A DNA stretch of 64,000 nucleotides, taken from positions 2,243-66,242 of the forward strand of contig CAUJGQ010000096.1 of assembly GCA_963170165.1 (NCBI GenBank), written 5' to 3'. Source of the stretch: Chloroflexota bacterium (lineage in GTDB: Bacteria; Chloroflexota; Dehalococcoidia; CAUJGQ01). Below are positions 29,062-43,797 of the stretch, piece by piece. The notes below the pieces were generated by a model. The model searched no databases. It saw nothing but the letters and a program-made list of their open reading frames with translations, and was not told where the DNA came from. Positions within the stretch are counted from its first letter, which is position 1. Every line of letters starts with the position of its first letter. The translations under genes and the position numbers were made by a program.

Positions 29062-30225
29062 ATGCCACGCTGGGCGCTATTGCTGTCAATGGCCGTGCTG
29101 TTCGTCGTGGCGATGGTGGCCGTCGTGGTGGTGCTGCGCCGGTCGCACGACGGTGGGCCAATCGCTACCGGTCCTACGCCGGCTCCGGGCTCGGTGGCGA
29201 TGCCGGACGGGATCGAGCTACTGTTTACGACACCGCTCGGCGGCAACAACCGCGCTCCCACCGGCGCGCCGGGCCGGCTCGATGAACGCCTCACCGCGCT
29301 CATTGACGGTGCACGCACGTCGGTCGACATGGCGATCTACGACCTACGGCTAGACAACGTGGCCGATGCACTGGTGCGCGCCCATCAGCGCAGCGTGCGC
29401 GTCCGGCTGGTAACAGATACGGACAACGTGGAGGATGCCCAGCTCAAGCGCGTGAAGGGCGCGGGCGTGCCGGTGGTGGCCGACGGCCGCGGCCCGCTCA
29501 TGCATCACAAGTTCACCGTGATCGATGGGGAAGTAGTGCTGACCGGCTCCTGGAATTACGCCCCGAACGACACCTTCCGTTACAACAACCACACGGCGGT
29601 GATCCGCTCCCGGCCGCTGGCCGAGAACTATACGGCCGAGTTCGAGAAGATGTTTACGCGCCGCAGCTTCGGCCCGACCAAGCCGAAAGACGTTCCCCAT
29701 CCGCGCATCGTACTGGACGGCGCCGTCATCACGACGATCTTCGAAGCAGAAGGGGATGCGGCCGGCCCGATTGTCGAGCGCATTCGCGGCGCGCGGCATA
29801 GTGTCGCGTTCCTCGCCTTCACCTTCACGCACGACGACATCGGCCGGGCCATCGAGGAGCGGTTCGCGGCGGGAGTCGCCGTACGCGGCGTCATCGAGAA
29901 CCTCCAGTCCGAGCGGCCGGAGGGGGAGCTTGGCCGCCTGGTGCGCGCCGGCCTGGGAGCGGCGCAGCCGGCCGGGGTGCCGCTGCCGGAGTGTGTGGCC
30001 GGCCCCGCCGTGCTGACAGACGGCAACCCGCAGCTCATGCACCACAAGGTGATCATCATCGACGGGACCGTCGCCATCTTCGGCTCCTTAAACTTCACTG
30101 CTAACGCCACCACCGACAACGACGAGAACGTGCTGATCATCGAGTCACCCGCCATCGCCGCGGCCTTCAGCGCCGAGTTCTGCCGCGTCTACAACGTGGC
30201 GGTGGAGGCGAAGAACCGGCGCTAA
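29062..30225 (+). CDS. phospholipase D-like domain protein (two HKD motifs), N-terminal membrane anchor
   Basis: Two HxKxxxxD motifs (HHKFTVIDGEVVLTGSWNYAPN and HHKVIIIDGTVAIFGSLNFTANA). N-terminal hydrophobic segment LLSMAVLFVVAMVAVVVV. Confidence 0.85.
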   Translation: MPRWALLLSMAVLFVVAMVAVVVVLRRSHDGGPIATGPTPAPGSVAMPDGIELLFTTPLGGNNRAPTGAPGRLDERLTALIDGARTSVDMAIYDLRLDNVADALVRAHQRSVRVRLVTDTDNVEDAQLKRVKGAGVPVVADGRGPLMHHKFTVIDGEVVLTGSWNYAPNDTFRYNNHTAVIRSRPLAENYTAEFEKMFTRRSFGPTKPKDVPHPRIVLDGAVITTIFEAEGDAAGPIVERIRGARHSVAFLAFTFTHDDIGRAIEERFAAGVAVRGVIENLQSERPEGELGRLVRAGLGAAQPAGVPLPECVAGPAVLTDGNPQLMHHKVIIIDGTVAIFGSLNFTANATTDNDENVLIIESPAIAAAFSAEFCRVYNVAVEAKNRR

Positions 30226-35466: not shown

Positions 35467-36384
35467 TCAGTGTGTCACGAGCGCGGCCACGGCGGCGGAG
35501 GCGGCCCGCAGATCGCCTTCCGGCGCCACCACACCGGGGGGCAGCTCCACCAGCCGGGCGGCGGGGCCACCAACGGCGATCACACACCCCAACGCGGAGC
35601 CGCTCAGCGCGGTAAGGGTCGCATGCAGCGCCGGCGCCGAGGCCGTGGCGGTAGCGCTCAGGCACACCGCCGGCGCGCCGCTGTCCCGCAGGCAATGCAT
35701 GAGATCCACCACCGGGACATCGGCGCCGAGATACAACGCGCGCACCCCAGCCCAGCGCAGGAACAGCCCCAGCATCAGCAGCCCCAGCGCGTGCTGCTCC
35801 CCCGGGACACAGGCCAGGATCACGGCTGGCGCGCCGGTGAGCGGCGGCTGAGCATGCCACAGCGCCTGCAGCCGCCGCTGGATGACGTTGGTGGCGAAGT
35901 GCTCGGCGCTGACCGGCAGATCGCCGCCGGCCCATTGCTCGCCGATGGCGTACAGCGCGGGAACGATCACGCCCAGCAGCACGTCGTCGGGAGAGAAGCG
36001 GGCATACGCTTCGCTCTGCACCGCATGCAGCGCCGGCTCGTCATAGCGGGCCGCGGCCTGCAACAGCTGGTCCGTCAGTGACGTCTGCGGCCTCAGCACC
36101 GGCGGCGCGCCATCAGATGCCGTACCCGGCGCGGCGCGCTGGGCCCAGCGCACGGCCTGGGCCGCACTCAGACCGCGCGCTGTCTGGACGCGCACCCAGG
36201 CGATGGCGGCCACCTCGCGCTCGGAATACAACCGGCGGGCGGAGGGGCTGCGGTCCGGAGAGGGAAAACCGTAGCGCCGTTCCCACGAGCGGAGGGTGGC
36301 CGCCGGCACGCCGGTGCGGCGCTCCACAGCTCGGATGTTGTACCGCGGCTCATTCACGCTGTCAGTTATCCATATCTCATGCAA
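35467..36384 (-). CDS. MerR family transcriptional regulator with C-terminal cobalamin-binding domain (CarH/LitR-like)
   Basis: MerR HTH (YNIRAVERRTGVPAATLRSWERRYG). B12-binding signature ExHxxG (PGEQHALG) and a downstream GG. The start is uncertain: TTG 36384 or GTG 36357. Confidence 0.7.
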   Translation of the reverse strand: MHEIWITDSVNEPRYNIRAVERRTGVPAATLRSWERRYGFPSPDRSPSARRLYSEREVAAIAWVRVQTARGLSAAQAVRWAQRAAPGTASDGAPPVLRPQTSLTDQLLQAAARYDEPALHAVQSEAYARFSPDDVLLGVIVPALYAIGEQWAGGDLPVSAEHFATNVIQRRLQALWHAQPPLTGAPAVILACVPGEQHALGLLMLGLFLRWAGVRALYLGADVPVVDLMHCLRDSGAPAVCLSATATASAPALHATLTALSGSALGCVIAVGGPAARLVELPPGVVAPEGDLRAASAAVAALVTH

Positions 36385-36475: not shown

Positions 36476-36573
36476 CAGAGGGGACCAGCGTGCTGCCGGT
36501 CCCCTCGTTGGCTGCGGTGCCGGGTGAGCGCTTAGTGCGCGGCGGCGCCGGAGTGGGCGAAGCCGATGTTCGG
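36476..36573. repeat. left copy of a 98-bp direct repeat (att-like): orphan duplicate of the TPP-enzyme gene 3' end plus terminator
   Basis: 95/98 identical to 42092..42189. Its reverse complement encodes ...PNIGFAHSGAAAH-stop with no gene attached. Contains the GGGGACC-N11-GGTCCCC hairpin. Confidence 0.8.
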
Positions 36574-36721
36574 AGTCGAAGCAGCGAGGTGCTTACTGGG
36601 GATACCTCAAAGTACTCGGTGCCTGCTATCCGGTTGTCACGGTAAAACTCCACTGCCAGGTTCCGAACAGGCTACCCCGCCAGCACTCGGAGATGGTCGT
36701 ATCTACAGGAGCAAGCTGTCC

Positions 36722-38569
36722 TCATAACCCTCTGCTGAGGAAGGCAACCAGGAGAGCACCTACGCCGGCGGCTAGAGACAGCACCACAGCTACCTTCACC
36801 CAAGCCGGAGCGCCGTCCTTTTGCGTCGGCCGTGGCGGTTGCGTAGGTCGTGGTGGCCCAGCCGGCGTGGGAGCAGCGGGTATGGGTGCTTGCAGCGGTG
36901 ACTGTAGCCCTGGCACAGCAGGGCGAGTCGCCGGTACCGCACGTGGGGGCTGCTGCGCCGATGGCTTGGCTGGCTCAAGCGGTCGAGAGGGCGATGGCGC
37001 ACCGGGAGAATGACTTGTCTGCTTCCTGATCTCCGCCAATACATCCATGTTCCTGGACTGCCGGGTCACGGGTGGCTGTGCAGTGGGCAGAGAGACGTGC
37101 GACGGCCCCTGAACTGACGGCGGTGGCAACGGGCCGGGCTCCGTGGATACTGGCGAGGAGATCTGTGGCGTTACCCTCGCGAGTGAACCGGGACCGCTCC
37201 CCAGGAGTCGAGGTGGCGGGCCGCCGCGGTTCAGTCTGAACTTCGCCTCTTGTTCGTCGATGAACTTGACCTGTGACTGATCCGTTATGGTAATGCCGAT
37301 GCTCTCGTACGACGGACCGACATAGGGCGGCTCTACCAATCCACTCACACTGACCCAGCGGCCTACCCATGCCGCAGATGGCCGGTCGCTGAATGTTGTC
37401 AGTCCTTCCGACCAGATGGTCAGCCGTGCACAGTTAAGCTTCCAGTTGCCAAAATTAACAAAAGCATACGGGTTCCCGTAGCGAGTAGTGGCAGTTTTTG
37501 TCTCGACTACCTTGCCAACGAGTTCCACCTTATCGCCAACCCGCCGGAGAACGGTCTTGTAGTCTGATGCGTCAACGACATCATAGGCGCCGACATAGCG
37601 CAGCGGCTGTTGAGGGACGGTGTGCCTTGACGCTGGTTGGGCAACAGTGACGGCGGATGCAGATGCAGGCCGTTTACCAGCTGCGAAGGCACCAAGGGCA
37701 GGCACGCTCTGGATCGGTGCCGCGCAAAGCTCTGCGAGTTGCTCCGCCTGCCGCTGTAAATCTGGTAGCCGCAAGAGGATCTTGAAGATTTCAGACTGAT
37801 TTGGATCCGCGAAGTCGCCAGCTTTGAAGACGATAGTCTCTCCACCTTCGCTGTACTTCGCGTAAAGTTCCGGGTTCGCCGCAAGCGCCTGCAGGCTGAC
37901 ATCGATGACAATCAGCGAGAAGCGATCGATCCAGGGGCCGAACTGATCGCCCGTTCGTCCAGGATGCTGGAAGTGCTTGAGGCCTATCTCGCTACTGCGT
38001 GTAACGGGTAGGCCGGGCACCCACATGCCGTCGTAATCGATCAGCTTGATGGAACCGTCACGCTGCACCATGACATTGCCGTTTTGCAGATCCCCATGCC
38101 CGATTCCTTGCTGCTCGAGGAATCCCGCCAGCGCACGAAATTTCGTCTGCAGCGACCGGATTGCCTGCGCATTACGGTACTGATGCTGGAGGTAGATGCC
38201 GAGCGTGTCGCCCTCCAGCCAGTCCATCACAACGATCGGGAAGACATTGCCATTCGCGCGAATTCCACTTGGTTGAAAAGAGAATTGTGTGAAGTAGTCA
38301 GACTGAAGCTTCCCAATGGAGCTGGAAATCGCTGCGTACTTCCCCTCGATATCCGGAACCGATCGGTGGAAGCACCGCACGGCGTACTTCTTCGAACCTG
38401 CCGTCAGCTTGTATGTCAGGGCAAATCCGCCGGAGCGTGCGAAGGGGATACCGAAAGAATTGGTTTCGACCTTCGCCTGCTTGAGCTCCGTATCGACAAA
38501 CGCGAACTGCGGATTCTGCAGCAGTTCCTGGTATTCGAGCATAGTGGGATACGCAGCCATTGCGGTCAC
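36722..38569 (-). CDS. protein-kinase-like protein with C-terminal OB-fold-like domain, Pro-rich linker and transmembrane anchor (TerY-P kinase component candidate)
   Basis: Catalytic-loop-like HGDLQNGNVMV (HxDxxxxN) and Mg-binding LIDYDGM (DFG-like). No canonical Gly-rich loop. C-terminal WVKVAVVLSLAAGVGALLVAFL transmembrane helix. ATGA overlap with the upstream PP2C gene. Confidence 0.7.
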   Translation of the reverse strand: MTAMAAYPTMLEYQELLQNPQFAFVDTELKQAKVETNSFGIPFARSGGFALTYKLTAGSKKYAVRCFHRSVPDIEGKYAAISSSIGKLQSDYFTQFSFQPSGIRANGNVFPIVVMDWLEGDTLGIYLQHQYRNAQAIRSLQTKFRALAGFLEQQGIGHGDLQNGNVMVQRDGSIKLIDYDGMWVPGLPVTRSSEIGLKHFQHPGRTGDQFGPWIDRFSLIVIDVSLQALAANPELYAKYSEGGETIVFKAGDFADPNQSEIFKILLRLPDLQRQAEQLAELCAAPIQSVPALGAFAAGKRPASASAVTVAQPASRHTVPQQPLRYVGAYDVVDASDYKTVLRRVGDKVELVGKVVETKTATTRYGNPYAFVNFGNWKLNCARLTIWSEGLTTFSDRPSAAWVGRWVSVSGLVEPPYVGPSYESIGITITDQSQVKFIDEQEAKFRLNRGGPPPRLLGSGPGSLARVTPQISSPVSTEPGPLPPPSVQGPSHVSLPTAQPPVTRQSRNMDVLAEIRKQTSHSPGAPSPSRPLEPAKPSAQQPPRAVPATRPAVPGLQSPLQAPIPAAPTPAGPPRPTQPPRPTQKDGAPAWVKVAVVLSLAAGVGALLVAFLSRGL

Positions 38570-39318
38570 CAGAGTACGAGGAGTGTAGTGTCATCGCGAC
38601 GCAGCCGACCACTTGCCCGTTCGTCAATCACGAACGTGCGAAAGGCACCGATGTCCTGAAGTTCCAGAAGACGCCGAACGGGATTGACTCCGAGACCTGA
38701 CTGCTCAAGGAACCAGAGGCCGAGTGCGTCGGTCATACACAGCAGGCGCGGCTGTTGATAATCCTGTAAGTCAAACTCCCCGCACCAGTCCCACCGGAGG
38801 AAGCCGTCCTCATCAAATTGATTCTCACTGAGATTAGTTGAAATCAGGTGGGGTCTGTTGCCGAACTGACTGGGATGAGACAAAGGAAACATTTGCTGGA
38901 TGGCGTCACCGTCGCAGAGCACACCGCAGGTGTCACCAATTGCCTGGATCTCCAGCAAACCCTGCGCGCGATAGCGAATACCCAGAAGACTCGCGAAGTT
39001 GCCCCGCTCCATCGCTGCCTGAGCGTGCCAAGGAAGATTATCCCAGTCAAAGCGCTTCGCGAACTCTTGCGCGACCTTCTTTAGTGAGTCGCGTCTGATG
39101 CTGGGGTCACGCACGTAGTGGCACACGAGCATCTGCGCCCAGGTGGCAGAGTCAAACGATACCGAAGCCCCATCGCTGAGCGCATATCTGCCCCAGCCGC
39201 GGTGCGCTTTCCACTTGTCCTCGTTCTGGGAGCCGTCGTCGTGCTTGGGTACCGTGAACTCGCGCCGCAACTGGAATGCGTCGGTTGACACCTTCGCCCC
39301 CCTAGCGATCGCCCGCAA
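38566..39318 (-). CDS. PP2C-family Ser/Thr protein phosphatase
   Basis: N-terminal metal-binding motif GSQNEDKW, the LSDGASVSFDSATWAQML block (equivalent to DGMGGHxxG), and the C-terminal DDTTLLVLW end typical of PP2C/SpoIIE phosphatases. Confidence 0.65.
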   Translation of the reverse strand: MRAIARGAKVSTDAFQLRREFTVPKHDDGSQNEDKWKAHRGWGRYALSDGASVSFDSATWAQMLVCHYVRDPSIRRDSLKKVAQEFAKRFDWDNLPWHAQAAMERGNFASLLGIRYRAQGLLEIQAIGDTCGVLCDGDAIQQMFPLSHPSQFGNRPHLISTNLSENQFDEDGFLRWDWCGEFDLQDYQQPRLLCMTDALGLWFLEQSGLGVNPVRRLLELQDIGAFRTFVIDERASGRLRRDDTTLLVLW

Positions 39319-41038
39319 CTACGTTCGCACGTGTGCCAATGTCGAAAAAGTCCACGATGAATCCGGGCGACTGCACATTGTACATGAAACCACGCGCGCC
39401 ATCCGCGATCTGGTAGTCTTTGCTCATCGCCGCCTGAACGAGGTGCGCTGGCAGTGCACTCGAGGCTCGGAAGAGCATGCGGGCGGAGTCATCAGGAAGG
39501 CCCGTCTCATCAGATGGGAGGACGATCGGCGCGATCGCTCCAAGGGCAACGTGGAGATTGAACACAAGAATCTCTCCATCATCGGTGCCCATGAGCCGCA
39601 ACTTCTCGACGATCTCTTCTGGCGACCCATCGGTGGACACACCATCGGTGATATGCAGTACGGTCGGTGGGTAGGAGTTCGGATGGGCATCGCACCAGGC
39701 TGCCAGTACCTCGGCAGCGCGCACGAAGGCCGCACGCATCGGTGTACCACCGGTGTTCTTTGGCTCGAACCAGACGGGGAACTTCGTGTTCATCTCGACA
39801 ACGCCACCGGCCCCGTCGTCGACTTTGCGCTTTCTCTCCTCAATGCGCAGAGGGTTATCAGCGATCATGCTGATAGAATGAAGATCCTGTCCAGCCAGGT
39901 TGCCGCTGAAGCCCGGCGCTACGCTGTTACCACCGTACCCAAGCACGCCGATGTCAAAGTAGTCCCGCACGCCGTCGGCTTTGGTGCAAACTTGGCCAAG
40001 CGTGTAGATGGTGCGATTGAGGACGTCCGCGACGAACTCGGCCTTGGACCGGCCACTCTCCATGCGTTCGTCCATGGAACCTGACTGGTCGACGAGAAAT
40101 AGAAAACACGTGGGGTTGGCTCTGCTGATCTCACCGCGATACGACATAGCTTCTGGATGCTCCTTGTGTTGCTGTTTGGATAGATTGATATTGTCCCAAT
40201 CCGGTCGCTCACTCGAGCCAACATATAAAGAGTCGATGAGGAAGCTCTCCGGGGACTCGACGTTGTACATGAAACCACGCGCACCATCCCCAACCTGGCA
40301 GCCCCGTTCTTGCGCTTCGTAAAGAAGGTGATCGGGCAGCGCACTCGATGCCCGCCACAACATGCGGGCGTTTTCATTCGGCAGCCTGGATTCGGTTGCT
40401 GGAAATAGGAGTTCTGAGTGACCCCCAGGAGCTACTTGCAGGTTGAAGATCAGGGAAGCGCCGTCGGCAGTTCCAAAATTCTGCAGTGACTTGCTGAGCA
40501 ACTCAGGCGACCCATCGGTCGAGTCGCCGCCAGTTAGGTGGAGTACGGTGGGAGGATAGGAGTCTGGATGGCGTTCGCACCAGGCTGCCAGTACCTCGGC
40601 AGCGCGCACGAAGGCCGCACGCATCGGTGTACCACCGGTGTTCTTTGGCTCGAACCAGACGGGAAACTTCGTGCTCATCTCGATCACGCCACCGGCGCCA
40701 TCGTCCACCGTTCGCTTCCGATCCTCGACCCGCAACGGGTTATCAGCCACCACACTTGTTGGATGAAGAACCTTGCCCGCAAGTATGCCGCCAAAACCCG
40801 GTGCCACGCTGTCATCACCATAACAAAGCACGCCGATGTCAACGTAATTTCGGACCCCATCTGATCTACAACTGCACTGGATTAATCGGGAAATGGCTCG
40901 GTTAAGTATGTCTGCAACGATCTCTGACCTGGGAGTTCCACTCTCCAGGTGCCCTTTCATCGACCCAGATTGATCAACAAGGAACAGGAAGCAGGTGGGC
41001 TTGGTTGGGCTGATCCAGGCGCGATACGGCATGATCAC
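39302..41038 (-). CDS. tandem-duplicated vWA (von Willebrand factor A) domain protein, TerY-like x2
   Basis: Two MIDAS motifs CFLFLVDQSGSM (DxSxS), one per half, with a TDG(D/V)STDG second metal loop. The two halves are about 60% identical with an 885-bp period. Confidence 0.75.
   Translation of the reverse strand: MIMPYRAWISPTKPTCFLFLVDQSGSMKGHLESGTPRSEIVADILNRAISRLIQCSCRSDGVRNYVDIGVLCYGDDSVAPGFGGILAGKVLHPTSVVADNPLRVEDRKRTVDDGAGGVIEMSTKFPVWFEPKNTGGTPMRAAFVRAAEVLAAWCERHPDSYPPTVLHLTGGDSTDGSPELLSKSLQNFGTADGASLIFNLQVAPGGHSELLFPATESRLPNENARMLWRASSALPDHLLYEAQERGCQVGDGARGFMYNVESPESFLIDSLYVGSSERPDWDNINLSKQQHKEHPEAMSYRGEISRANPTCFLFLVDQSGSMDERMESGRSKAEFVADVLNRTIYTLGQVCTKADGVRDYFDIGVLGYGGNSVAPGFSGNLAGQDLHSISMIADNPLRIEERKRKVDDGAGGVVEMNTKFPVWFEPKNTGGTPMRAAFVRAAEVLAAWCDAHPNSYPPTVLHITDGVSTDGSPEEIVEKLRLMGTDDGEILVFNLHVALGAIAPIVLPSDETGLPDDSARMLFRASSALPAHLVQAAMSKDYQIADGARGFMYNVQSPGFIVDFFDIGTRANVVAGDR
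39692..39778. repeat. 87-bp segment perfectly identical to 40577..40663 (core of the intragenic vWA duplication)
   Basis: Direct comparison of the two halves of the 39302..41038 gene. The flanks diverge gradually. Confidence 0.85.
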
Positions 41039-41075
41039 TCCGGATGCCGAGTCTTCGTACCTTTGGCTGGCACCA

Positions 41076-41921
41076 TCACGTCAGTTGAGCGCGCGTGCCG
41101 ATATTGAAGAAGTCGACGATGCTCGAGATATCCGCGTTGTAGACGAAGCCACGTGCTCGCTCCTGTATCCGCAGCCCTTGCTGGCGGGCAGACTGGATCA
41201 AAGTCGCGGGTAGTTCGCTCGACATCTGGAACAGCTTGACGGCGTACTTATTTGGCAATCCAGCTGGGTCTCTCGGAAAGGCATGCGAGTTGCCGTGCCC
41301 CTGGTCGACGTGGAGATTGAACAGCAAACATTGGCCATCCTCTGTTGCAAGCGCCCTCACCTTGGCGGCTATGGGCTCGGGATCACCATCTGTCGGATGC
41401 CCATCGGTTACGTGCAGCAAGATGGGTGGATAGCTGAGTGGGTGGCGGTGCACCCAGTCATTCAATGTCTGATGGGCAAGTCCGAGTCCAGCGCACATCC
41501 CGGTCCAGCCGCGGCTGCACGGCTCTACCCAGACCGGAAATCGTATCGGGTTGCTAATCGTGTCTCCGGTCTCAGACTTGACCTGCTGCTGACGAGTCTC
41601 AATACGCAAGGGGTGCGTAGCCATGAGTGAAAGTGGATGGAGGACGGCGGTATTGAGTACGCCGTGTAAGGCGTTCTCAGCAAGTCCAAGGTCACGCGTC
41701 AGACCGCTGTAACCGATGACGCCGACATCGAAGTAGTCACGCACTCCATCGTGTCGTGTGGAAGCGACAGCCAGGGTGGCGAGGGTGCGATTGATCACGT
41801 CGCACAGAAACTGTGCCTTCGTGCCTGCGCCTTCGACATGCTCGCGCATCGAGGTCGATTGGTCTACAAGGATTAGCAGGCATGCAGGCGACGTCTGGCT
41901 GATGGCAGCGGAGTACACCAC
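41076..41921 (-). CDS. vWA domain protein (TerY-like), first gene of the operon
   Basis: MIDAS ACLLILVDQSTSM plus TDGHPTDGD. Paralogous to both halves of the fused gene. GGGAGA RBS. Confidence 0.75.
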   Translation of the reverse strand: MVYSAAISQTSPACLLILVDQSTSMREHVEGAGTKAQFLCDVINRTLATLAVASTRHDGVRDYFDVGVIGYSGLTRDLGLAENALHGVLNTAVLHPLSLMATHPLRIETRQQQVKSETGDTISNPIRFPVWVEPCSRGWTGMCAGLGLAHQTLNDWVHRHPLSYPPILLHVTDGHPTDGDPEPIAAKVRALATEDGQCLLFNLHVDQGHGNSHAFPRDPAGLPNKYAVKLFQMSSELPATLIQSARQQGLRIQERARGFVYNADISSIVDFFNIGTRAQLT

Positions 41922-42001
41922 TGGAGATCTCCCGCGGCTTCAGCGTGCGACAGTGTTGACGTGCTAGTTGTCGCAGCGACTGGCACTCTAGCTGGTTTGG
42001 T

Positions 42002-42030
42002 ATCATACATAGACATTATGTGACATGCAA
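42002..42030 (-). promoter_or_regulatory. putative sigma-70 promoter for the vWA-PP2C-kinase operon (TTGCAT, 17 nt, TATGAT on the minus strand)
   Basis: Near-consensus hexamers with a 17-nt spacer in an AT-richer 180-bp region about 75 nt upstream of the vWA start codon. Confidence 0.4.
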
Positions 42031-42091
42031 TCATTTCGAAAGGCGTGGTCGCCTCATTGCCCTCATCTGAGGTCGTGCAGTGAAGTCAATA

Positions 42092-42189
42092 CAGAGGGGA
42101 CCAGCGTGCTGCCGGTCCCCTCGTTGGCTGCGGTGCCGGGTGGGCGCTTAGTGGGCGGCGGCGCCGGAGTGGGCGAAGCCGATATTCGG
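42092..42189. repeat. right copy of the 98-bp direct repeat: the genuine 3' end (last 14 codons plus stop) and terminator hairpin of the TPP-enzyme gene
   Basis: Reverse complement reads DPNIGFAHSGAAAH-stop in frame with the 549-aa ORF. Hairpin GGGGACC-N11-GGTCCCC at 42096..42120. Confidence 0.85.
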
Positions 42190-43797
42190 GTCGGTGATGA
42201 CATTGATGCAGGCGGGGACTCCGGAGGCAAACGCCCGCTCCAGCGCCGGCCGGATCTCCTTGGCTTCGGTCACCATCTCGCCGTAGCCGCCCATCGCCTC
42301 GACGATTTTGTCGTAGCGCACGCTCTGCGACAGCTCCTGCGCGACGGTGTGGCCGTAGCGCTGCATCTGCGGGCGCTTGTTTTCGCCCCAGGCGCCGTCG
42401 TTGCCGATGATCGACACCACCGGCAGCTTGTGCCGCACCATCGTCTCGAACTCAAAGCCGTTGAGACCGAAGGAGCCGTCGCCGTTGACGATCAGCACCT
42501 GCTCCTGCGGACGGGCCAGCTTGGCGGCGATGGCGTAGCCGGTGCCGACGCCCAGGCAGCCCAACCCGCCCGGATCAAGCCAGTGGCCGGGCTTGTAGAT
42601 GTCGAGGATGCGGGCCGCGGTGGTGACGACATCGCCGCCGTCACCGATCACCGTGGCGTCGCGGTCGATGAAGTCGCGGATCTCCTTGCACAGGCGGTAG
42701 GGGTGAATCGGGTTCTGGTCCGAGTTCATCACCGCCTCATCCGCCTTGCGCGTCTGCCCCTCGATGCCGCGCAGCAGCTCGATCCAGGCATCGCCGCCAC
42801 GGCGGTCGCGGCCGGTCTCCAGCTCGTTGACCAGCTGCGTGAGCACGGAGTTGACGTCGCCCACCAGCCCGACCTCGATGTCACGGTTCTTGGCGATCAG
42901 CGTCTCATCGACATCGACTTGGATCACCTTGACGTCCGGGTGGAAGCGCGGCGGCCGGCCGAAGCGCAGGCGGAAGTCGAACGGCGCGCCGATCACCAGC
43001 ACGACATCGGCCTGAGACAGCGCCTGCCCGCGGGAGAAGGCAAAGAACAGCGGGTGGTCGGCAGGGATGGCGCCGCGGGCCATGCTGTTCAGATAGACCG
43101 GGGCGTTGAGCGTCTCGATAGTGGCGCGCAGGGCGTCCCACGCCTGGTCAAACCAGATGGCGGAGCCGGCCATCACCACCGGCCGCTCGGCATTCGCCAG
43201 CAGATCGGCGGCGCGGCGCACCTCATCCGGGTCGGCCTGGGTGCGGCCGGTGGCGCGGTCCTGCTTGGGCCACCACACCTTCTCCTCGGCAGCGCTGCCC
43301 ATGATCACGTCGATCGGCACCTCCAGGAAGGAGGGGCCAGGCCGGCCGGCAATGGCATGGCGGAAGGCGATGGAGATGTACTCGGGCAGGCGGGCCGTCT
43401 GCGCCACCATCGCCGAGTACTTGGTGATCGGGCGCAGGAAGTCCAGGTGATCGATCTCCTGGAGGTTGCCCATCCCCCACTGCGCCAGCGGGCTCTTGCC
43501 ACCGATCACGATGCAAGGCGCGCCGCTCTGCAGGGCGGAGACGATACCGGTGACGCCGTCGGTGACGCCTGGTCCGGCGGTAATGGCGGCCACACCCGGC
43601 TTGCCCGTCACCTTCGCCCAGCCCTCGGCAGCGTGCACGGCCGCCTGCTCGTGGCGAAAGTCAACGACGCCGATACCTTCTTTGACGCAGCCGTCATAGG
43701 TGGGCGAGATATGCCCGCCGCTGAGCGTGAACAGGTGCTGCACGCCCTCTTTCTTGAGCTGGCGGGCGATGAGATGCCCGCCATGCAAATCGGCCAT
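42148..43797 (-). CDS. thiamine pyrophosphate-dependent enzyme (acetolactate synthase large subunit/oxalyl-CoA decarboxylase family)
   Basis: N-terminal TPP_enzyme_N motif (GVQHLFTLSGGHISPTYDG), TPP-binding GDGSFGLNGFEFETMVRH...N motif, and 549 aa. GGAGG RBS. Confidence 0.8.
   Translation of the reverse strand: MADLHGGHLIARQLKKEGVQHLFTLSGGHISPTYDGCVKEGIGVVDFRHEQAAVHAAEGWAKVTGKPGVAAITAGPGVTDGVTGIVSALQSGAPCIVIGGKSPLAQWGMGNLQEIDHLDFLRPITKYSAMVAQTARLPEYISIAFRHAIAGRPGPSFLEVPIDVIMGSAAEEKVWWPKQDRATGRTQADPDEVRRAADLLANAERPVVMAGSAIWFDQAWDALRATIETLNAPVYLNSMARGAIPADHPLFFAFSRGQALSQADVVLVIGAPFDFRLRFGRPPRFHPDVKVIQVDVDETLIAKNRDIEVGLVGDVNSVLTQLVNELETGRDRRGGDAWIELLRGIEGQTRKADEAVMNSDQNPIHPYRLCKEIRDFIDRDATVIGDGGDVVTTAARILDIYKPGHWLDPGGLGCLGVGTGYAIAAKLARPQEQVLIVNGDGSFGLNGFEFETMVRHKLPVVSIIGNDGAWGENKRPQMQRYGHTVAQELSQSVRYDKIVEAMGGYGEMVTEAKEIRPALERAFASGVPACINVITDPNIGFAHSGAAAH

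Follow-up and report, generated by a model that had tools for sequence, protein, structure and literature searches.

A kinase gene in the 64,000-nucleotide stretch of Chloroflexota DNA analysed here (the window) raises two questions: whether the architecture of its product, which a sequence-only reading had called unusual, is particular to this locus, and whether that product could act as an infection sensor for the vWA and phosphatase proteins encoded beside it. We are highly confident that the open reading frame encodes the membrane-tethered kinase subunit (STK_OB) of a TerY-P anti-phage system. The locus as a whole is very probably best explained by such a kinase, encoded by the final gene of its operon, on an acquired island. 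The features discussed below are collected in Table 1.

Table 1. Coordinates of the operon, of the parts of the kinase and of the repeats at the island borders (positions in the window; res, residues of the kinase)
Feature	Positions	Strand	Basis
Left 98-nt repeat copy: hairpin and displaced TPP-enzyme gene 3' end	36476..36573	+	97% identical to 42092-42189
Kinase gene of the TerY-P system (615 aa; PADLOC STK_OB)	36722..38569	-	ORF and PADLOC model
C-terminal transmembrane helix AWVKVAVVLSLAAGVGALLVAFL, res 589-611, then SRGL and stop	36737..36805	-	Hydropathy and AlphaFold2
Disordered Pro/Ala/Ser-rich tether, res 447-588	36806..37231	-	pLDDT and composition
Short linear motif SRNMDVLAEIRKQT, res 505-518, inside the tether	37016..37057	-	Conservation and predicted short helix
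OB-fold domain, res 325-446	37232..37597	-	AlphaFold2 and Foldseek
Protein-kinase domain, res 1-300	37670..38569	-	pLDDT mostly >90; Foldseek; profile alignments to PAK1 and PKA
DYDG, res 178-181, DFG equivalent	38027..38038	-	Profile alignment
Catalytic loop HGDLQNGN, res 158-165 (D160 catalytic Asp; N165)	38075..38098	-	Alignment to HRD..N of PAK1 and PKA
β3 strand KKYAVRCF, res 60-67, Arg65 replacing the VAIK lysine	38369..38392	-	Alignment to PKA
PP2C-type phosphatase gene, 250 aa	38566..39318	-	PADLOC PP2C (PDLC02222), E 1.2e-63
Fused tandem TerY-TerY vWA protein, 578 aa, two MIDAS (VDQSGSM)	39302..41038	-	PADLOC TerY, E 4.6e-229, two stretches
First TerY vWA gene, 281 aa	41076..41921	-	PADLOC TerY (PDLC02224), E 1.3e-94
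Right 98-nt repeat copy, the actual 3' end of the TPP-enzyme gene 42148-43797 (-)	42092..42189	+	

The operon and its island

The predicted gene proved to be genuine, its product having more than 1,200 homologues (best E 1.2e-191). The nearest recorded sequence is ∼56% identical, no copy above ∼50-52% identity was found in the species-representative genomes scanned, and a plasmid search returned two matches only, both distant and cyanobacterial. An identical protein turned up on one 3.2-kb Logan contig and nowhere else, and the TPP enzyme encoded beside the island had no match on record. The PADLOC model for STK_OB (PDLC02223) matches the protein with an E-value of 5.8e-170 and aligns residues 6-536 with 2-522 of its 562 positions.

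The operon is tightly packed and runs TerY vWA, fused TerY-TerY vWA, PP2C and, last, the kinase, whose start is overlapped by the PP2C stop by 4 nt. The PP2C protein has no Pfam match. All three TerY domains carry a MIDAS motif, which reads VDQSTSM or VDQSGSM. The fused TerY pair is the product of a tandem duplication; the gene contains an internal repeat with a period of 885 nt and 81-82% nucleotide identity, and its halves are 63% identical. In the nearest relative, locus L082, the second TerY shares 75% identity with the C-terminal half, and the first TerY shares 66% identity with the first TerY of the window. The number of TerY domains is a local feature of the window, with three here (two of them fused) and one or two in typical TerY-P systems. 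The order TerY, PP2C, kinase is found in L082 and recurs in most of 80 genomic loci; the latter come from Alpha-, Beta- and Gammaproteobacteria, Nitrospirota, Planctomycetota, Acidobacteriota, Verrucomicrobiota, Clostridia and other groups. The gene features by which TerY-P is recognized are all present at the locus: an STK_OB kinase, an adjoining PP2C gene and adjoining MIDAS-bearing TerY genes, in co-linear order. It is thus like the TerY-P/STK_OB systems (Gao 2020; PDLC02223) in its TerY and PP2C partners, in gene order and in the C-terminal OB fold of the kinase.

The operon forms a 5.6-kb island with a GC content of 0.581, against 0.67-0.68 in the flanks, and a GC3 of 0.64-0.68, against 0.83-0.90. 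The island is bounded by a 98-nt direct repeat with sharp borders, and both repeat copies encode the same PNIGFAHSGAAAH followed by a stop. Because of the low GC, the low GC3 and the flanking repeat we assign the island a foreign origin; judged from these sequence features, it is horizontally acquired. A dispersed REP-like element was considered for the repeat and rejected, since the 64-kb window holds just two copies of its hairpin core. When the island and its borders were scanned for Rfam families and tRNAs, nothing passed the threshold, and hence there is no tRNA attachment site. Promoter and terminator scans produced no more matches than shuffled sequence.

The literature offers two views of such an operon (for Gao 2020 and Anantharaman 2012 we follow the accounts in PMC11090510, PMC7699616 and PMC4978471). 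TerY-P-like modules whose kinase has a C-terminal OB fold are described as stand-alone anti-phage systems (PMC11090510, citing Gao 2020, Science 369:1077), and the target of TerY-P defence is given as T7-like phages (PMC7699616). A Pseudomonas aeruginosa variant of TerY-P gives protection from Autographiviridae whether the MOI is low or high, with the majority of cells surviving (bioRxiv 10.1101/2022.08.12.503731). A mechanistic study of TerY-P was not found in the literature searched. The TerY-P triad was originally hypothesized to be a metal-sensing phosphorylation switch with a link to tellurite resistance (Anantharaman 2012, via PMC11090510). A module for general stress signalling or metal sensing would suit that hypothesis and the binding of metal ions by vWA MIDAS motifs, and no further defence gene adjoins the island. 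We nevertheless judge this alternative improbable, since the locus matches the OB-fused subtype, the one reported to defend alone against T7-like phages, the small and compositionally foreign island is of a kind typical of defence cargo, and the neighbourhood contains no ter genes. The TerY-P triads found within Ter, CoCoNuT and McrBC-type loci follow the same logic of vWA protein, PP2C and Ser/Thr kinase (Anantharaman 2012; PMC11090510). Their kinase, however, carries a C-terminal zinc ribbon and lies inside larger restriction-type operons, whereas the kinase of the window carries an OB fold and its locus is a stand-alone island that lacks neighbours of this type.

Domain layout and kinase active site

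A kinase domain, an OB fold, a Pro-rich linker and a C-terminal helix follow one another in the protein, as the sequence-only reading had proposed (Table 1). Its description of this architecture as unusual did not hold up; the layout is the norm of a family and defines STK_OB in PADLOC. To standard annotation the kinase looks orphan-like, because its Pfam and NCBIfam matches are weak and partial, with none over the OB region, and on that basis the architecture might be taken for a novelty particular to this locus. This is most improbable. The dedicated PADLOC model extends across both folded domains, and the fusion of kinase and OB fold has already been named in the literature (PMC11090510). 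Among 66 complete genomic homologues from different species, 60 have the OB domain and 50 a hydrophobic helix after it; when the 120 closest homologues are considered, 95 end in a C-terminal hydrophobic helix. The kinase is therefore a divergent member of a catalogued defence family, with a layout that is ordinary for STK_OB. What sets the copy in the window apart from typical TerY-P kinases is its length (615 aa versus 540-570), together with a neutral OB domain with a short loop (see below).

The full-length AlphaFold2 model has a pLDDT of 81.9, with values mostly above 90 for residues 1-300 and 325-450. Structure prediction combined with Foldseek, the check that had been proposed, returned a protein-kinase fold from the full model and an OB fold from residues 318-452. 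The PDB matches to the full model include ASK1, JAK3, PknB, CDKs and PKC (E ∼1e-8, probability 1.0, TM by target ∼0.5-0.6). The kinase domain has a conserved N-terminal helical extension, the β1-β2 turn SGGF, Arg65 in β3, and APE-like and αF-Asp motifs in the C-lobe. Pfam Pkinase (PF00069) scores 21.6 bits, below its cut-off of 31.7, and covers residues 112-180 only.

Conservation of the active site was assessed in a 70-sequence alignment and in the 80 genomic loci. The HxDxxxxN and DFG-like motifs picked out from the letters are both real: HGDLQNGN aligns to the catalytic loops of PAK1 and PKA, and profile alignments place D160 on D166 and N165 on N171 of PKA, and D178 of DYDG on the DFG Asp. 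H158, G159, D160, Q162 and N165 are invariant in the alignment, as are D178, Y179, D180 and G181; essentially all of the 80 loci show HGDxxxxN, and D[YF]D recurs among them. The two departures from the kinase norm were also read correctly. R65 falls on K72 of PKA, and the GxGxxG loop is absent, the β1-β2 turn reading SGGFA, with G47 invariant and G48 conserved in at least 90% of the 70 sequences. A conserved αC Glu is not evident in the same alignment.

These departures could mean weak or unconventional catalysis. Taken further, they would describe a pseudokinase or scaffold that has lost phosphotransfer with its β3 lysine and Gly-rich loop and merely tethers a TerY/PP2C complex to the membrane, a reading to which the absence of an evident αC Glu and the Pkinase score under the gathering threshold also lend themselves. 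We think this unlikely. The invariance of the catalytic-loop residues and of D178-G181 is what selection on an active site should produce, and because D160, N165 and D178 never vary in the alignment, the kinase is probably an active enzyme. Arg65 is itself invariant in the alignment and is Arg, never Lys, wherever the β3 motif is recognizable in the 80 loci, across many phyla, which points to functional replacement and not to decay. Finally, a PP2C gene always accompanies the kinase gene, a pairing that makes little sense unless kinase activity exists.

Other kinases resemble this one in part. The catalytic-loop signature HGDLxxxN is common to RIO, Bud32, Kdo-kinase and APH kinases, and partial NCBIfam and Pfam matches over residues 112-180 were obtained for Bud32, RIO1, ABC1, APH and Kdo kinase, all far below the family cut-offs. 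Minimal RIO and Bud32 kinases lack the C-lobe with an APE-like segment and αF Asp. The kinase of the window, unlike these, has a full C-lobe, in which an APE-like segment and the αF Asp align to PAK1, and in addition the OB domain, tether and transmembrane helix. The PADLOC kinases PD-T4-6, MkoA and mad6 have the catalytic core region in common with it (residues ∼105-180, E 2.5e-7 to 1e-3), but the likeness ends at ∼70 residues round the catalytic loop, and both architecture and partners are different.

The OB fold, the tether and the membrane helix

In an AlphaFold2 model of the domain, the OB-like region is predicted as a β-barrel with a C-terminal helix (pLDDT 93.2). The best 50 PDB matches to residues 318-452 almost all have an OB fold (E 4.8e-4 to 9e-3, TM 0.4-0.6), and the BFVD matches are likewise mostly OB-type proteins, SSBs included. 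Together, the model and its neighbours uphold the OB-fold call. Pfam and NCBIfam gave no match over residues 300-450, and when the OB alignment was used as a profile against PDB sequences, nothing fell below E 0.1 and the matches stayed at chance level.

It had been suggested that this domain senses nucleic acid and so reports infection. The structural neighbours in the PDB are almost all nucleic-acid binding (Teb1 OB-A, RPA, SSB, PriB, tRNA synthetases, PolC). In 59 of 70 homologues the OB loop is a 15-residue stretch rich in K, R and G, and the median net charge of the domain is +5. Nucleic-acid sensing by the STK_OB family is thus plausible from its sequences. The case is weaker for the copy in the window, whose OB domain has a net charge of 0 and a β2-β3 loop (KTATTRYGNPY) of 11 residues with two basic ones. 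A role of the OB domain as direct infection sensor is, overall, a tentative proposal. The same charge and loop could belong to a protein-protein module that docks the TerY vWA proteins, PP2C or a phage protein. Such a module would fit with the nature of the invariant residues in the 70-sequence alignment, which are mostly aromatic or hydrophobic (F370, W386, W401 and W405, with F373 and W376 nearly invariant), and with the fact that neither PDB chains nor curated OB families that bind nucleic acid match it in sequence. Protein-binding OB folds, namely Stn1-Ten1 and the engineered OBody, do occur among the structural neighbours. The best of these neighbours are nonetheless nearly all nucleic-acid binders, and the basic loop and positive charge of most homologues also speak against a protein module, which we consider possible but somewhat doubtful.

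The Pro-rich linker described in the sequence-only reading is present and looks disordered: it contains 20-30% Pro, and residues 454-585 have a pLDDT below 50. Its sequence and length vary among homologues, and it is longer in the window kinase. Within it, AlphaFold2 predicts a short helix (506-518) with raised pLDDT at the linear motif. The motif, [TS][RSK]NxxILxx[IL], is found in one or two copies in 52 of 93 family members, compared with 0.7 expected from shuffled linkers. No pattern linking the number of motifs to the number of TerY genes was seen in the few cases compared.

The proposed tail anchor is likewise supported. Strongly hydrophobic 19-residue windows (at least 1.6) occur only at 589-614, with a Kyte-Doolittle maximum of 2.64, AlphaFold2 models a helix there with pLDDT above 90, and four residues later the protein ends. 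No signal peptide and no second transmembrane segment were found in the protein. By hydropathy and the AlphaFold2 model, the kinase is predicted to be a bitopic or tail-anchored inner-membrane protein. The helix is terminal in 40 of the 66 complete kinases and is followed by extra domains in 10; since long homologues place periplasmic-type domains, TonB_2 (E 6e-13) or PG_binding_1, after the helix, and since a kinase depends on ATP from the cytoplasm, the topology is putatively N-in/C-out.

A comparable membrane arrangement is that of the bitopic Hanks-type receptor kinases of bacteria, for example Mycobacterium tuberculosis PknB (kinase, juxtamembrane linker, transmembrane segment, extracellular PASTA domains). 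The likeness consists of the kinase fold, the disordered linker and the single transmembrane segment, and the PknB structures 1mru, 2fum and 6b2q are among the Foldseek matches to the kinase model. Unlike PknB, the window kinase has no ectodomain, only 4 residues following its helix, and its OB fold is predicted to lie on the cytoplasmic side. It also differs in having Arg in β3, no GxGxxG, and HGDxQxxN where PknB has HRDxKxxN. With the NCBIfam PknB_PASTA_kin model, whose cut-off is 450 bits, it scores 22.

A possible mechanism and the place of the family

The catalytic and OB domains would face the cytoplasm, hung from the membrane by the ∼140-residue disordered tether. Kinase and PP2C may then form an opposing phospho-switch that acts on the MIDAS-containing TerY proteins, on phage proteins or on both; the chances that TerY is the main phospho-substrate are about even. 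The OB domain would serve as an input or recruitment module that recognizes a phage-derived ligand, either single-stranded nucleic acid or a protein, near the membrane, the site of podophage genome entry. Activation would lead to an early block of infection and not to killing of the cell.

These elements can be combined into a more ambitious proposal, which as a whole we regard as speculative and rather unlikely to be correct in all its parts. The STK_OB family would constitute a mechanistically distinct group of membrane-tethered infection sensors, in which the tethered OB domain directly captures incoming podophage nucleic acid or a protein ejected by the phage. ATP would be held in an unconventional manner by the invariant Arg, and the motif [TS][RSK]NxxILxx[IL] would link the kinase with TerY and PP2C, either as a docking site or as a site of autophosphorylation. 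The additional TerY domains, fused as a pair, would represent an expansion of the output arm in dosage or specificity.

TerY-P is an experimentally validated defence, and to it the locus adds a divergent member, at ∼56% identity to the nearest recorded sequence. The family offers near-universal anchoring, an invariant Arg and a tether motif as features for mutagenesis in a search for its trigger and output. It also contains two variants of the OB loop, one rich in Arg and Gly and the other short and neutral.

The TerY-P operon and its island

The kinase ORF closes a row of four closely spaced genes, after those for the 281-, 578- and 250-aa proteins; the 578-aa and 250-aa genes overlap by 17 nt, and the 250-aa and kinase genes by 4 nt. 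The assignment of the operon to TerY-P is unambiguous at the profile level, since STK_OB, PP2C and TerY (two proteins) were all matched by PADLOC. Judging from more than 1,200 homologues (best E 1.2e-191, 56% identity), the kinase ORF is a genuine gene. Pfam gave no above-threshold match for it (Pkinase, 21.6 bits against a cut-off of 31.7, was partial and covered residues 112-180 only) and none on the PP2C neighbour. NCBIfam matches of the kinase to Bud32, PknB and LanKC all fell below threshold, over the catalytic loop.

Features of the island, its operon and its surroundings
Feature	Coordinates	Strand	Description
PLD-superfamily gene	29062-30225	+	two HKD motifs; PLDc_2 E 4.5e-43
MerR-family regulator gene	35467-36384	-	two B12-binding domains
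98-nt direct repeat, left copy	36476-36573		97% identical to right copy, 3 mismatches
Island	36574-42091		5.6 kb, bounded by the repeat
Kinase ORF	36722-38569	-	615 codons; PADLOC STK_OB E 5.8e-170, residues 6-536
Linker motif SRNMDVLAEIRKQT	37016-37057	-	residues 505-518; predicted short helix (AlphaFold2)
OB β2-β3 loop KTATTRYGNPY	37466-37498	-	residues 358-368; 11 residues
Arg65 codon	38375-38377	-	β3
PP2C gene	38566-39318	-	250 aa; PADLOC PP2C E 1.2e-63
Second vWA protein gene	39302-41038	-	578 aa; PADLOC TerY E 4.6e-229, two domains
Duplicated stretches in 578-aa gene	39366-39917 and 40251-40802		885-nt period; 81-82% nucleotide identity
TerY-like vWA gene	41076-41921	-	281 aa; PADLOC TerY E 1.3e-94
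98-nt direct repeat, right copy	42092-42189		
TPP-enzyme gene	42148-43797	-	right flank

The operon is a compositionally foreign island, with a GC content of 0.581 (flanks 0.673 and 0.683) and a GC3 of 0.64-0.68 (flanks 0.83-0.90). The repeat that bounds it contains a hairpin together with the final 13 codons and stop codon of the TPP-enzyme gene; PNIGFAHSGAAAH* is encoded by each of its two copies. Neither an integrase nor a tRNA was found inside the island or at its borders. Directly to its left lies the MerR-family regulator, of CarH/LitR-like light-responsive architecture, which appears to be chromosomal and outside the island. The PLD-superfamily gene, whose product has an N-terminal hydrophobic segment, is ~6.5 kb away; no connection to TerY-P was seen.

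Most genomes carry one TerY, while two occur in a Bradyrhizobium/Xanthobacteraceae group and in the nearest relative (locus L082). None of the 80 genomic loci has more than two TerY genes; the system in the window has three vWA domains. The 578-aa protein is made up of two TerY units, joined in frame following tandem duplication. At the joint, the reading frame of the upstream copy continues through ~20 spacer codons to the start Met of the second copy. The C-terminal half shares 75% identity with the second TerY of L082 and 63% with the N-terminal half, a diverged duplicate; the counterpart of the 281-aa TerY in L082 is the first TerY there (66% identity).

Kinase and OB domains

An AlphaFold2 model of the full-length kinase, computed from a 70-sequence alignment of homologues, had a pLDDT of 81.9 (mostly > 90 for residues 1-300) and a pTM of 0.72. 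Foldseek against the PDB returned ASK1, JAK3, PknB, PKC and CDKs (E ~1e-8, probability 1.0). Profile alignments to PAK1 and PKA identify D160 as the catalytic Asp, N165 as the catalytic-loop Asn and D178 as the DFG Asp, together with an APE-like segment (HFQHPxR) and the αF Asp D215; R65 occupies the VAIK lysine position. The sequence-only reading had proposed a kinase core with an HxDxxxxN loop and a DFG-like DYDG, and model, Foldseek and alignments bear this out. Its Arg in β3 and missing GxGxxG also hold: alignment and model place SGGFA, with an invariant G47, at the β1-β2 turn. No conserved αC glutamate is evident in the family.

All the residues placed by the profile alignments to PAK1 and PKA, R65 included, are invariant in the 70-sequence alignment. 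Wherever the β3 motif is recognizable in the 80 loci, which span many phyla, the residue is Arg and never Lys. The alignments thus show a conserved catalytic site, in which the Asp/Asn/Asp triad is invariant alongside the β3 Arg family-wide, and mark the motif peculiarities as traits of the whole family. The HGDxQxxN loop is similar to that of RIO, Bud32 and APH-type kinases (the best partial matches), whereas the C-lobe is of the full Hanks type.

The OB fold suspected from sequence was recovered in a separate AlphaFold2 model of residues 318-452 (pLDDT 93.2), a β-barrel with a terminal helix. This region had no match to curated sequence families or PDB sequences. The best 50 PDB matches of the model were nearly all nucleic-acid-binding OB-fold proteins or domains (E 4.8e-4 to 9e-3, TM 0.4-0.6), including Teb1 OB-A, a Klebsiella OB lipoprotein, RPA, SSB, PriB, Asp/Asn/Lys-tRNA synthetases, PolC and Stn1-Ten1; a viral structure library gave mostly OB-type proteins, SSBs among them. 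A 15-residue Lys/Arg/Gly-rich insert (e.g. GVGKRGRGRGRPY) forms the β2-β3 loop in 59 of the 70 homologues, and the domain has a median net charge of +5. Structural neighbours, basic loop and charge together support a putative nucleic-acid-binding role of the OB domain in the family. The copy in the window belongs to the minority with a short loop of 11-12 residues and has a net charge of 0, which makes a protein ligand a serious alternative for this copy. A role of the kinase as a nucleic-acid sensor of infection is plausible, somewhat less so for the window copy.

Membrane anchor and linker

The only strongly hydrophobic segment of the kinase spans residues 589-611 (Kyte-Doolittle maximum 2.64). 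It is modelled confidently as a helix, and the stop codon follows after four residues. Hydropathy and model agree with the C-terminal transmembrane helix proposed earlier, and together they show a membrane-anchored kinase. The architecture had been called unusual, a view that the homologues contradict. By the same hydropathy criterion, 95 of the 120 closest have a hydrophobic C-terminal helix; others are just sub-threshold or have amphipathic ends such as LLDWLRRWIS. Among 66 complete kinases from genomes of different species, 60 have the OB domain and 50 the helix, which lies at the extreme end in 40 and has another 42-460 residues after it in 10; the tails of the other 16 are mostly weakly hydrophobic or amphipathic. 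The layout of kinase, OB domain, linker and anchor is, on these counts, not unusual.

In some of the long homologues, TonB_2 (E 6e-13) or PG_binding_1 domains lie beyond the helix. Since these domains are periplasmic, the helix would span the membrane, with kinase and OB domain in the cytoplasm, and the long forms suggest true receptor-kinase versions with periplasmic sensing. The family resembles classical bitopic bacterial receptor kinases but usually lacks the ectodomain and has an OB domain added on the cytoplasmic side. Extensions of 190-460 residues past the helix, a minority trait in the family, were seen in homologues P0012, P0033, P0041 and P0077 and at loci L042, L056, L058, L062, L066 and L076; several gammaproteobacterial long forms have in common a C-terminal stretch that includes Cys (e.g. 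...CNGAQPGQW...). A juxtamembrane motif, (R/K)IPxW(V/L/M)W, directly precedes the helix in most homologues, and residues 586-592 of the window kinase (APAWVKV) are a degenerate version of it.

Residues 454-585 are predicted to be disordered (pLDDT < 50) and contain 20-30% proline, in keeping with the Pro-rich linker first proposed. Within this otherwise variable tether one motif is kept: [TS][RSK]NxxILxx[IL] occurs in 52 of 93 family members (0.7 expected from shuffled linkers), usually once or twice per homologue and once in the window kinase. The motif may serve for docking or be phosphorylated. Magnetospirillum/Phaeospirillum loci (L068-L072) encode ~420-aa kinases of the same family downstream of TerY and PP2C; these have no OB domain and an amphipathic C-terminal helix, yet retain the motif (NQLLLEELQR).

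Proposed role in defence

Stand-alone anti-phage TerY-P-like modules with a kinase fused to a C-terminal OB fold are described in PMC11090510 (citing Gao 2020), and OB-fused TerY-P systems act against T7-like phages (PMC7699616). A Pseudomonas aeruginosa variant gives protection from Autographiviridae whether the multiplicity is low or high, and the majority of cells stay alive (bioRxiv 10.1101/2022.08.12.503731). No mechanistic study of TerY-P was found in the literature searched. The pairing of the kinase with PP2C and MIDAS-bearing vWA proteins is obligatory. We propose that kinase and phosphatase would form an opposing switch acting on TerY or phage targets, with the OB domain supplying input close to the membrane, where podophage DNA enters. 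Defence would be early and not abortive, in line with the survival of P. aeruginosa cells. The locus is a divergent new addition to the known TerY-P defence system, with a minor variant of its operon.
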